Shown here piece by piece: positions 55,382 to 57,916 of a DNA stretch of 57,941 nt. Each line of letters begins with the position of its first letter. Within the stretch, counting starts at the first letter, position 1. Position numbers and translations under genes: made by a program. This DNA comes from Chthoniobacterales bacterium (GTDB lineage: Bacteria; Verrucomicrobiota; Verrucomicrobiia; Chthoniobacterales; UBA10450). The stretch spans positions 1 to 57,941 of the forward strand of contig DAIOVO010000003.1 of the NCBI GenBank assembly GCA_036758965.1. The letters are read 5' to 3'. The notes beneath the pieces are model-generated. The model was given only the letters and a program-made list of their open reading frames with translations, did no database searches and was not told the DNA's origin.

Positions 55382-55416
55382 GCTGTGAGTTTAACAACAA
55401 TCGCCTCCGCTGCCAC

Positions 55417-55444
55417 GTCATCCCTCGACCTCGCTCGGGATGAC
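55417..55444. repeat. REP-like 28 nt palindromic element, copy 1
   Basis: GTCATCCCtcgacctcgctcGGGATGAC. Its reverse complement (GTCATCCCGAGCGAGGTCGAGGGATGAC) matches the partial copy at 57920..57941. Confidence 0.6.
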
Positions 55445-55486
55445 GGAAATTGTGCAATGAGATCGGGTCGGCTAACATGCGCTCCC

Positions 55487-57916
55487 ATGCCCAATGCGAC
55501 CGAATCAATCGTCACTCCGGAAATCGTGGCCAAACACGGACTAACGCCGGAGGAATTCGCGCGCATTAAAAAAATACTCGGGCGCGAGCCGAACTTCACT
55601 GAGCTAGGAGTTTTTTCGGTGATGTGGAGCGAGCATTGTTCCTACAAGAATTCGCGAAAGGAGCTGCGGAAATTTCCGACGAGCGGCCCGAATATCTTGG
55701 TGAAAGCAGGCGAGGAGAACGCGGGCGTGGTCGATATTGGCGATGGCTGGGCGATCGCATTCAAGATCGAATCGCACAATCATCCGAGCGCGATCGAGCC
55801 GTTCCAGGGAGCGGCCACCGGAGTTGGCGGAATCATTCGCGACATTTTCACGATGGGCGCGCGGCCGGAGTTTTGTCTGAACTCGCTCCGCTTCGGGCCG
55901 ATCGTAGGAAATGCGGAACGCGGAATGCGGAATGCGGAATGCGAGAAAGGCACGGTTGGTGGCGTCAATCAATCCGCAATCCGCACTCCGCACTCCGCAC
56001 TGCAGAACAATCGAAGATTATTCACAGGTGTCGTTAGCGGAATCGCGCATTACGGCAATTGCATCGGCGTGCCGACCATTGGCGGTGAAATTTATTTTGA
56101 TGAAAGTTTTGAGGGCAATCCGCTGGTGAATGTGTTTTGCCTCGGCTCTCTGCGACACGAGCAACTGGCGCGGGGCGCGGCCACCGGAACTGGCAATCCG
56201 GTTTTTTATGTAGGCGCGGAGACGGGCCGCGACGGTTTGGCGGGAGCCACGTTTGCGTCGCGCGAGCTAACCGAGGAATCGCGCGAGGACCGGCCGGCGG
56301 TGCAAGTGGGCGATCCGTTTATGGAAAAGCTTTTGCTGGAAGCTTGCCTCGAACTTTTGGCGACGGACGCGGTTGCGGGAATCCAGGACATGGGCGCGGC
56401 GGGTTTGACGTGTTCGACTTGTGAGACCGCCAGCCGCGGCGGCAGCGGCGTGGAAATTGATCTGGCGAAAGTGCCGAAACGTGAGGCAGGAATGACGCCG
56501 TATGAAATTCTTTTGAGCGAATCGCAGGAGCGGATGTTGATCATCGGCAAACGCGGGAAAGAAAATGTCGTGCGCGAAATTTTCGAAAAGTGGGACGTGC
56601 CCTGCGCAGAAATCGGCGTGGTGACGGACGATGGCATGATGCGGGTTCGCAACAACGGCAGTGTGGCCGCGGAAATTCCGGCGAAACCGCTGGCGGACGA
56701 AGCGCCGCTCTATTCGCGGGAGGCGAAGAAATTAACCACGGAGAGCGCGGAGGACGCTGAGTTTTTCAAGAATTCCTCCGCGGTCTCCGTGCCCTCGGCG
56801 TTGGAATCCCTTCGGAAATTGCTGGCCGATCCGACGATTGCCTCCAAGAACTGGGTTTATCGTCAATATGATCACACCGTGCGCACTGGCACGGTGGTGA
56901 AGCCCGGCTCGGACGCCGCCGTCTTCTATATTAGAGAGGCGAATAAATTCATCGCGGCCACGACGGATTGTAACTCACTCTATTGCGCGCTCGATCCGCG
57001 CGAGGGCGGGCGAATCGCGGTGGCGGAAGCGGCGCGCAATCTCACCTGCTCGGGCGCGCGCCCGTTGGCGGTGACGGACAATTTGAATTTCGGGAATCCT
57101 TACAAACCGGAAAATTTCTGGCAACTGCGCGAAGCGGTCGAAGGCGTAGCGGAAGGGTGTCGCGCGTTCGGAACGCCGGTGATTGGCGGCAATGTTTCTC
57201 TTTACAACGAGAGCCCGGCCGGTGTGGTCGATCCCACGCCGACGGTGGCGATGGTGGGATTAATTGACGAGGAGAAGCACATCACCACCCAGTGGTTTAA
57301 GAGTGCGGGTGACGCGATCATTCTGGTCGGCGCTGGAGGGACGCGCGCTGTCGCGTCCGGGGACGACACAGCGGTCGTCCCTCCAAAGCTGGGTGGGTCG
57401 CGCTTGCTGAAAGTCGTTTACGGAAAGAAAATCGGGCCGATTCCCAGGCTCGATCTCGATCTGGAAACCGCGGTGCAAAATGCCGTGCGCGACTTGATCC
57501 GCTCAGGTCTTGTTAGAAGCGCGCACGATTGCAGTGAAGGCGGCCTGGCGGTGGCGCTGGCGGAATGTTGTTTTCATCCGGAAGGTTTGCTCGGCGCGGA
57601 GATCGATCTCTGTAGCCACGGCTCTGCGAGCCGTGCCGGCGACGCGTCCCATGGAGACGTAGTTGCAGAGCTATTCCACGAAGCGCAATCGCGGATTATT
57701 ATTTCCTGCGCACCGGGAGATGCGGAGAAGATTCTGGCGGAATTAAGTCCGAAGAGTGTGCCGTGCTCGAAGATCGGTTCGGTCGTCACAGACGAGCTGC
57801 GCATTTCAATTAACGGCGAAAATCTCCGCTGGCCGGTCGCAGAACTGCACGATCTTTGGTGGAACGCCATCCGCCGCGCAGTCGAGAGCGATTCCGAACC
57901 GCTGCCGAGTTTGTAA
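55487..57916 (+). CDS. purL: phosphoribosylformylglycinamidine synthase subunit PurL, with three extra in-frame segments
   Basis: [60 protein letters not shown] and [11 protein letters not shown] motifs. ATG at 55487. Confidence 0.93.
55907..56005. repeat. heptamer-built hairpin element inside the purL CDS
   Basis: Left arm is GCGGAAC then GCGGAAT x3. A ~30 nt spacer follows. Right arm is AATCCGC x2 then ACTCCGC x2, the near-complement of the left arm. Confidence 0.75.
57335..57384. repeat. 50 nt imperfect palindrome inside the purL CDS
   Basis: Outer arms are GGAGGGACG...CGTCCCTCC. Inner hairpins are GGACGCG-cgctgt-CGCGTCC and GGGACGAC-acagcg-GTCGTCCC. Confidence 0.65.

Follow-up and report, generated by a model that had tools for sequence, protein, structure and literature searches.

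In a 57,941-nucleotide stretch of a Chthoniobacterales bacterium (contig DAIOVO010000003.1; the whole stretch is called the window below), purL, the gene for phosphoribosylformylglycinamidine synthase subunit II, carries a heptad-repeat hairpin of about 100 nt that is inserted in frame between the conserved protein motifs SLRFG and GVV, at a position we refer to as site A. On balance, we lean towards reading this hairpin as a translated palindromic repeat, most likely without function, in a hypervariable and tolerant loop of PurL that would have been remodelled by slippage and recombination. The main points of interest are the hotspot at site A and a polarity rule that governs the arms of such hairpins; in-frame palindromes and the over-representation of heptamers are already known. 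Coding palindromes had been described as a peculiarity of Rickettsia, and here there are four of them in an essential gene of abundant soil Verrucomicrobia. Site A is thus a natural experiment in the amount of arbitrary sequence that a loop of an enzyme can take up, in how repeat DNA creates variation in protein length, and in what generates the heptamer repeats of bacteria.

Anatomy of the purL insert

The two arms of the hairpin are tandem arrays of 7-nt units. Tandem Repeats Finder (TRF) reported the 5' arm (55910-55943, + strand) as a period-7 array with 4.9 copies of AATGCGG and 92% matches, and a pattern search and the inverted repeat resolve it into one GCGGAAC and three GCGGAAT units that are translated into 11 amino acids. 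The 3' arm (55973-56001, + strand; period 7, 4.1 copies of TCCGCAC/A, 95% matches) comprises, by TRF and the inverted repeat, two AATCCGC and two ACTCCGC units that are translated into 10 amino acids. Between the arms the folds place a loop of about 28-31 nt (55944-55972, + strand) that has a unique sequence and is likewise translated. Scored as an inverted repeat, the arms span 55912-55941 and 55970-55999; each has a length of 30 nt, their complementarity is 83% and the spacing is 28 nt. In the minimum-free-energy structure the whole predicted stem-loop extends over 55904-56003, and in + strand RNA its outermost helix pairs GTAG (55904-55907) with CTGC (56000-56003). The + strand RNA folds at -51.3 kcal/mol (z = -5.8), the - strand RNA at -56.0 kcal/mol (z = -7.5) and the DNA at -30.6 kcal/mol (z = -5.2). 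On the + strand, pairing of the arms is interrupted by one mismatch in each heptad. In - strand RNA the ACTCCGC units are part of an unbroken stem by means of G-U pairs, just as the initial annotation of this DNA had proposed from the sequence.

Within the window, the heptad arrays are confined to this locus. With up to two mismatches allowed, GCGGAATGCGGAAT has 6 matches in 57.9 kb, all at site A, compared to 1.35 expected, and none of 100 shuffles reached 6. Neither TRF nor the pattern search found a second array of the heptad unit in the rest of the window, and the loop sequence is not repeated anywhere in the roughly 1.5 Mb of fetched loci. A terminator or Chi-like role for the arrays was considered and dropped: nothing supports it, and the stem is not followed by a U-tract. 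A search of Rfam returned only sub-threshold look-alikes of microRNA precursors, which we dismissed as generic hairpin matches, and no family match.

The purL gene (55487-57916, + strand) was assigned from the list of open reading frames (ORFs), from matches of the window protein in the PDB (PurL 3viu, E = 8e-192, and 1vk3) and from the database protein P0001, which is 100% identical to the window's PurL and carries the Pfam domains PF18072/PF00586/PF02769. P0001 has 809 amino acids, which implies a start at 55487 (M35 of the longest ORF). That ORF (55385-57916, + strand) contains the element in frame and has no stop codon within it; it begins with a GTG 34 codons upstream of 55487 (55385-55486), and relatives have nothing that corresponds to this extra N-terminus. 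Among named PurL proteins, the nearest belong to metagenome-assembled genomes (MAGs) of Verrucomicrobia/Chthoniobacterales and are 77-82% identical.

Comparison with PurL proteins of known structure locates the extra segment. In the alignment with Thermus PurL (3viu), query residues 173-208 stand opposite chain residues 129-133, a span of five residues, and in that with Thermotoga PurL (1vk3) the blocks on either side of the insert abut. With the junction short in both proteins, and with TRF, the inverted repeat and the folds in agreement, the claim that an extra, stop-free heptamer hairpin lies in frame at this position stands. From SLRFG to GVV the window has 129 nt compared to 51 nt in relatives whose site is "empty", a difference of 78 nt or 26 amino acids. 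Judging from its tolerance of indels, the segment probably lies at the protein surface.

Site A and further hotspots in related purL genes

Relatives were sampled as the 120 closest proteins and as 80 metagenomic purL loci (L001-L080, 596 kb). Among the closest proteins that have both flanking motifs, the stretch from SLRFG to GVV ranges from 17 to 52 amino acids and falls into many unrelated types. The 80 loci hold, at the same codon-level position, either a 51-nt baseline, a plain heptamer array or a hairpin, and 80/80 are in frame and stop-free, making 81 such alleles with the window. The baseline, which encodes PITGxSPNVAxNRRLF, is present in fifteen loci (twelve in the main listing and three seen separately). 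Some ten loci have 72 nt (baseline + 21) with 3-4 heptamers such as AAATCGA or GAAATTC. The number of units varies from 2 to about 19 among relatives, the largest array being that of L056, in which the AATCCGC units occupy 177 nt (baseline + 126). In L063 and L043, (CCAATCG)n arrays run on into the native AAT-CGC-CGN codons that specify N-R-R. Heptad hairpins in the window's reading register were found in L009, L011 and L066.

There are at least 12 unrelated hairpin cassettes at site A, and the loci outside the groups above hold at least ten other hairpins. Many of the hairpins in relatives start with GTAG, fitting the GTAG-tagged repetitive extragenic palindromic sequences (REPs; PMC3733652), and several of these GTAG-type hairpins have copies elsewhere in the fetched loci. 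The peptides at site A of the proteins P0058, P0089 and P0104, such as DAGCWILDAGS...SSSIQ, suggest a second family of heptad hairpins there, built from GGATGCT / AGCATCC units. Sequence and length differ from one relative to the next, and predicted stability ranges from -4 to -89 kcal/mol. We read the PurL loop between SLRFGP and NRRLF as one that tolerates almost any sequence.

Different cassettes are found between near-identical flanks (96.9% for L016 compared to L025/L028, 93.9% for L008 compared to L017; 510 nt). L016 has 105 nt of heptamer arrays where L025/L028 have the 51-nt baseline, and the adjoining N-R-R codons differ as well. This pair of alleles looks like the product of a recent recombination event that replaced a segment, rather than of a simple insertion. 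When filled alleles were compared to the nearest empty ones, the whole loop was found to be replaced, with no simple insertion. Alleles that bear GCGGANT lie scattered, with 69-83% identity among their flanks, and the nearest neighbors of each hold other sequence. In 654 kb of DNA from the clade, purL site A is the only place with GCGGANT arrays of at least two units. For a motif restricted to one site in scattered lineages, random transposition is a poorer fit than generation on the spot, exchange of cassettes or strong targeting. Heptamers as such are common in these genomes. Among tandem arrays of at least three copies in the 596 kb of relatives, period 7 is dominant (42/69) and includes many different units, which adds Verrucomicrobia to the heptamer-rich genomes known from cyanobacteria and Xanthomonas.

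Site A is one of at least five indel hotspots in an alignment of 53 full-length PurL proteins, and the window's purL contains three further in-frame palindromes. The site B hairpin (56737-56791, + strand) has 18-nt arms that are 94% complementary, is built from 9-nt units and encodes 18 amino acids. In the window and six relatives (L005, L012, L013, L016, L019 and L036), 6 of its 18 pairs have changed on both sides. Each arm has three 9-nt units, and GGAT/ATCC is replaced by GGAG/CTCC in every unit of both arms with pairing kept, a pattern that covers all seven lineages. Because both-side changes recur in each unit, the arms of site B look as though they evolve in concert, through compensatory changes. 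Most relatives lack the site C palindrome (57334-57385, + strand; 17 amino acids), as does Thermus PurL. One of its arms is copied over 25/25 nt in another contig (L039:9724-9748), and the palindrome therefore belongs to a dispersed repeat family. The site D palindrome (57612-57635, + strand), which reads GTAGC CACGGCTC TGC GAGCCGTG, is GTAG-tagged and REP-like, encodes CSHGSASRA and lies in an indel hotspot. At site D of relatives there are other GTAG REPs, some from families found at site A of other lineages, and the same hairpin families occur more generally at different purL sites in different lineages. The idea that purL is a magnet for hairpins was rejected: the density of perfect stems is 0.257 per kb in purL and 0.23 per kb in its flanks. 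With a density no higher than that of the flanks, the special feature is the site and not the gene.

Heptad-armed hairpins in other genomes and viruses

Species-representative genomes contain at least 120 stretches with three tandem GCGGA[A/G/T]T units, and viral contigs likewise contain at least 120; several arrays are present in some of these contigs. The expectation that the motif would have related copies elsewhere was thereby borne out, and some of these copies are in-frame parts of genuine genes. Acidobacteriota, Verrucomicrobiota, Planctomycetota, Chloroflexota, Gemmatimonadota, Bacteroidota and Nitrospirota are all represented among the matches listed. We examined the cellular loci L081-L200 and the viral loci L201-L404. 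The structures form a distinct type, the heptad-armed hairpin, which has a G[CG][CG]GANT 5' arm, a complementary 3' arm and an arbitrary loop. Within the library searched, no paper contains these repeat or peptide strings, in keeping with the initial impression that the family had not been described.

Thirty-two hairpin pairs were identified in the cellular loci, with loops of 14-148 nt that are unrelated between genomes; the exception is L116, which has two copies with homologous interiors. Some genomes have several copies on one contig. Unit variants are common to both arms of a hairpin at a level of 0.716 compared to 0.506 when permuted, and 0/2000 permutations gave a value as high. About half of the heptad arrays elsewhere are in long ORFs, and intergenic heptad hairpins also occur. 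In other phyla, in-frame copies were confirmed with Pfam in a Ser/Thr kinase (after DFG), in UvrA and in a class-III aminotransferase. Two Blastocatellia MAGs have a PSD1 (DUF1553) protein in which the inverted arms flank a conserved host segment, HDWDVKHVIRLIVTSxTYRQS (L138:5256-5419, L156:3269-3400); joint arrival of the arms is thus not a necessity. Among the viral sequences, IMGVR_UViG_3300032160_000019 (L322, L331, L347, L392, L399, L400) and IMGVR_UViG_3300050015_000263 (L219, L229, L242) have many heptamer arrays. Such 40-kb viral contigs contain several unit types, often on one strand, and L400 has three arrays 33 nt apart.

Origin of the insert and comparison with known systems

In the reading that we favor, replication slippage would make the heptamer arrays and change their unit number, a step suggested by the dominance of period 7 among tandem repeats of the clade. 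Copying or selection would keep the inverted partner arm similar, and recombination across the highly conserved flanks would swap or replace whole site A cassettes between lineages. The alleles that survive would be those with a net length that is a multiple of three and without stops, because purL is needed. GCGGAAT, GCGGATT, GCGGAGT and their complements have no stop codon in any frame, so the DNA can be read through as a low-complexity loop.

Several findings weigh against this reading. One is polarity: across cells and viruses the G-rich arm is 5' in 131 hairpins and 3' in 2 (51 vs 1 in the cellular loci, 13 vs 0 for viral GCGGANN and 67 vs 1 for viral GGCGANN). We know of no earlier description of strict polarity in inverted heptamer pairs. 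At kilobase distances there was no polarity (22 "+-" vs 17 "-+"). Stem stability was rejected as the cause of the polarity, by reasoning and not by computation, because the nearest-neighbor stacks are identical whichever arm is 5'. Simple slippage does not predict a polarity shared by phyla and viruses alike; such a polarity argues for a specific enzyme or common descent, and the 131 to 2 ratio provides a concrete, testable clue to mechanism. The choice of heptad is a second difficulty. Beside the GCGGADT stretches counted above (three units, at least 120), viral contigs contain 84 stretches of three GGCGADT units and 12 of the permuted GCGAGDT, an excess indicating that heptad sequence matters and not length alone. 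Slippage alone leaves both the polarity rule and this sequence preference unexplained. Furthermore, the window element is itself an exception to the similarity of arms, in that its arms share no unit variant and have one mismatch per heptad, which would require each arm to be homogenized separately. Finally, an AlphaFold2 model of PurL made with 50 close homologues (mean predicted local distance difference test score, 48.9; predicted template modeling score, 0.49) was too poor for placement of the insert, and neutrality and translation enter the reading as assumptions.

It is possible, if rather doubtful, that the insert is a non-autonomous mobile element resembling Rickettsia palindromic elements (RPEs), miniature transposable elements with inverted repeats (MITEs) or REPINs (paired REPs). 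The heptad arrays would then be terminal inverted repeats with multiple binding sites, moved by a transposase or HUH enzyme, and the insert would have survived in purL as a stop-free sequence with a length that is a multiple of three. Fixed arm polarity is what defined element ends would produce, and the arm consensus common to many phyla and to viral contigs, the multiple copies per contig in some genomes, the two L116 copies with homologous interiors, the insertion in unrelated genes and the dispersed GTAG REPs at the same purL site in relatives are all consistent with mobility. However, loops are not homologous between genomes and that of the window is unique; the PSD1 arms flank a conserved host segment and not element DNA; and the 58-kb window contains no further copy, nor, outside site A, do the 596 kb of relatives. 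All-against-all clustering of ORFs revealed no recurrent transposase in 868 kb around the 120 cellular copies listed, where the only ORF families were abundant ones (ABC ATPases, kinases, PSD1). No target-site duplication was seen at the ends of heptad hairpins, which were inspected by eye only and without a systematic search. A related candidate, an autonomous element bounded by inverted arrays 0.4-7 kb apart in cellular and viral loci, was rejected, the interiors being ordinary genes such as that for a small membrane protein in L119. The initial annotation had likened the insert to RPEs. The likeness holds for an in-frame, translated palindrome. The picture of a single RPE-like element transposed into purL is not supported, given unrelated cassettes, plain arrays and empty alleles at one hypervariable site, a loop without a homologue, ends and surroundings that yielded neither a duplication visible by eye nor a linked transposase, and GCGGANT confined to site A in 654 kb.

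We also put forward, tentatively and as a doubtful case, that heptad-armed hairpins are a distinct class of palindromic DNA that spans phyla and is borne by phages, and that they are made or moved by a hypothetical dedicated enzyme that targets existing hairpin or heptad sites. Polarity across phyla and viruses would be in line with such an enzyme. If this were true, the loop between SLRFGP and NRRLF would be a recurrent landing pad, and would offer selfish hairpins a general route to reshaping loops in essential proteins beyond Rickettsia.

The existence of empty alleles and of unrelated cassettes makes a regulatory, phase-variation or adaptive-loop role unlikely. We give little credence to a functional nucleic-acid element, in which the stem-loop would tune purL expression through pausing or mRNA stability, or the 7-nt units would act as a frameshift contingency locus. 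The structure is strong and significant on both strands, most relatives have some hairpin at site A, and site B has kept its pairing through both-side changes; for phase variation, heptamer arrays are prone to slippage and 7 cannot be divided by 3. Against these points, fifteen loci have the 51-nt baseline only and other loci hold arrays that are unable to fold. Sequence, length and stability vary over the range given above, Rfam has no matching family, every heptad of the window stem contains a mismatch, and 81/81 alleles are in frame. That the insert is an adaptive addition, a loop that gives PurL an interaction or regulatory surface, is very unlikely. The frame is kept and most relatives have a long loop of some kind, but the peptide is set by the DNA repeat (cyclic strings of the AECGMRN / SAIRNPQ type), close relatives have unrelated cassettes and empty alleles exist, and such peptides also turn up in unrelated proteins and spurious ORFs. 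An assembly or chimera artefact of the metagenome-assembled genome can practically be dismissed: library preparation can create inverted duplications, but the arms match imperfectly (83%), the reading frame is intact, NCBI has a record of an identical protein, and dozens of independent assemblies have analogous structures at site A and elsewhere.

We return, then, to a translated repeat in a tolerant loop as the favored reading. Whatever their origin, such inserts mislead annotation through low-complexity peptides and spurious ORFs, and may break short-read assemblies. Among the known systems, MITEs (for example Correia/NEMIS, ERIC and Nezha) have terminal inverted repeats, a short non-coding interior and occasional in-frame copies within genes. 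The present hairpins resemble them in having terminal inverted repeats (in the window, the 30-nt arms with 83% complementarity) around a short interior, and in their occasional in-frame intragenic copies. They differ in that no interior is shared, except by the two L116 copies, no parent insertion sequence was found and no duplication was seen by eye.

REPs and REPINs are GTAG- or CGTC-tagged imperfect palindromes that are linked to REP-associated tyrosine transposases (RAYTs) and have also been reported inside genes (Di Nocera et al., PMC3733652). The similarity lies in short imperfect palindromes that are sometimes paired, and GTAG REPs are present at site A of relatives and at site D here. 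A REP is, however, a single palindrome of 20-40 nt with a GTAG/CGTC tag, whereas the arms in the window are tandem heptads, and no RAYT association was seen. A GTAG does sit 5 nt upstream of the heptad arm in the window; heptad hairpins elsewhere were found, by eye, to have no GTAG/CGTC at their ends.

RPEs, as summarized in PMC10969869 from Ogata et al. (2000, 2002), are palindromes that lie in frame in housekeeping genes of Rickettsia and are read through as an extra peptide. To the extent of that summary, the window element is similar: the palindrome falls at the lower end of the RPE size range (about 100 nt compared to about 100-150 nt) and lies in frame in a functional housekeeping ORF, to which it adds 26 amino acids at an apparently permissive place. 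According to the same source, RPE families share full-length sequence and peptide and have many copies per Rickettsia genome. In the window element, from Verrucomicrobiota, only the heptad arms are common and the loops are arbitrary. The 58-kb window has no further copy, and the loop is unmatched in the fetched loci; within this DNA neither whole-sequence copies nor a conserved peptide accompany it.

The arms themselves are closest to heptameric simple sequence repeats, which are over-represented in the intergenic regions of Xanthomonas and Nostoc and include the GGGAATC arrays of Xanthomonas, some in inverted pairs, and the short tandemly repeated repetitive (STRR) heptamers of cyanobacteria (PMC4692102). 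Like these, the window arms have at least three tandem 7-nt copies (4.9 and 4.1), copy number varies among relatives, and occasional inverted pairs are able to form stem-loops. Unlike the arrays of PMC4692102, which are intergenic, the copy described here lies in frame in the coding sequence of an essential gene, and the inverted pairs to which it belongs have a strict polarity.

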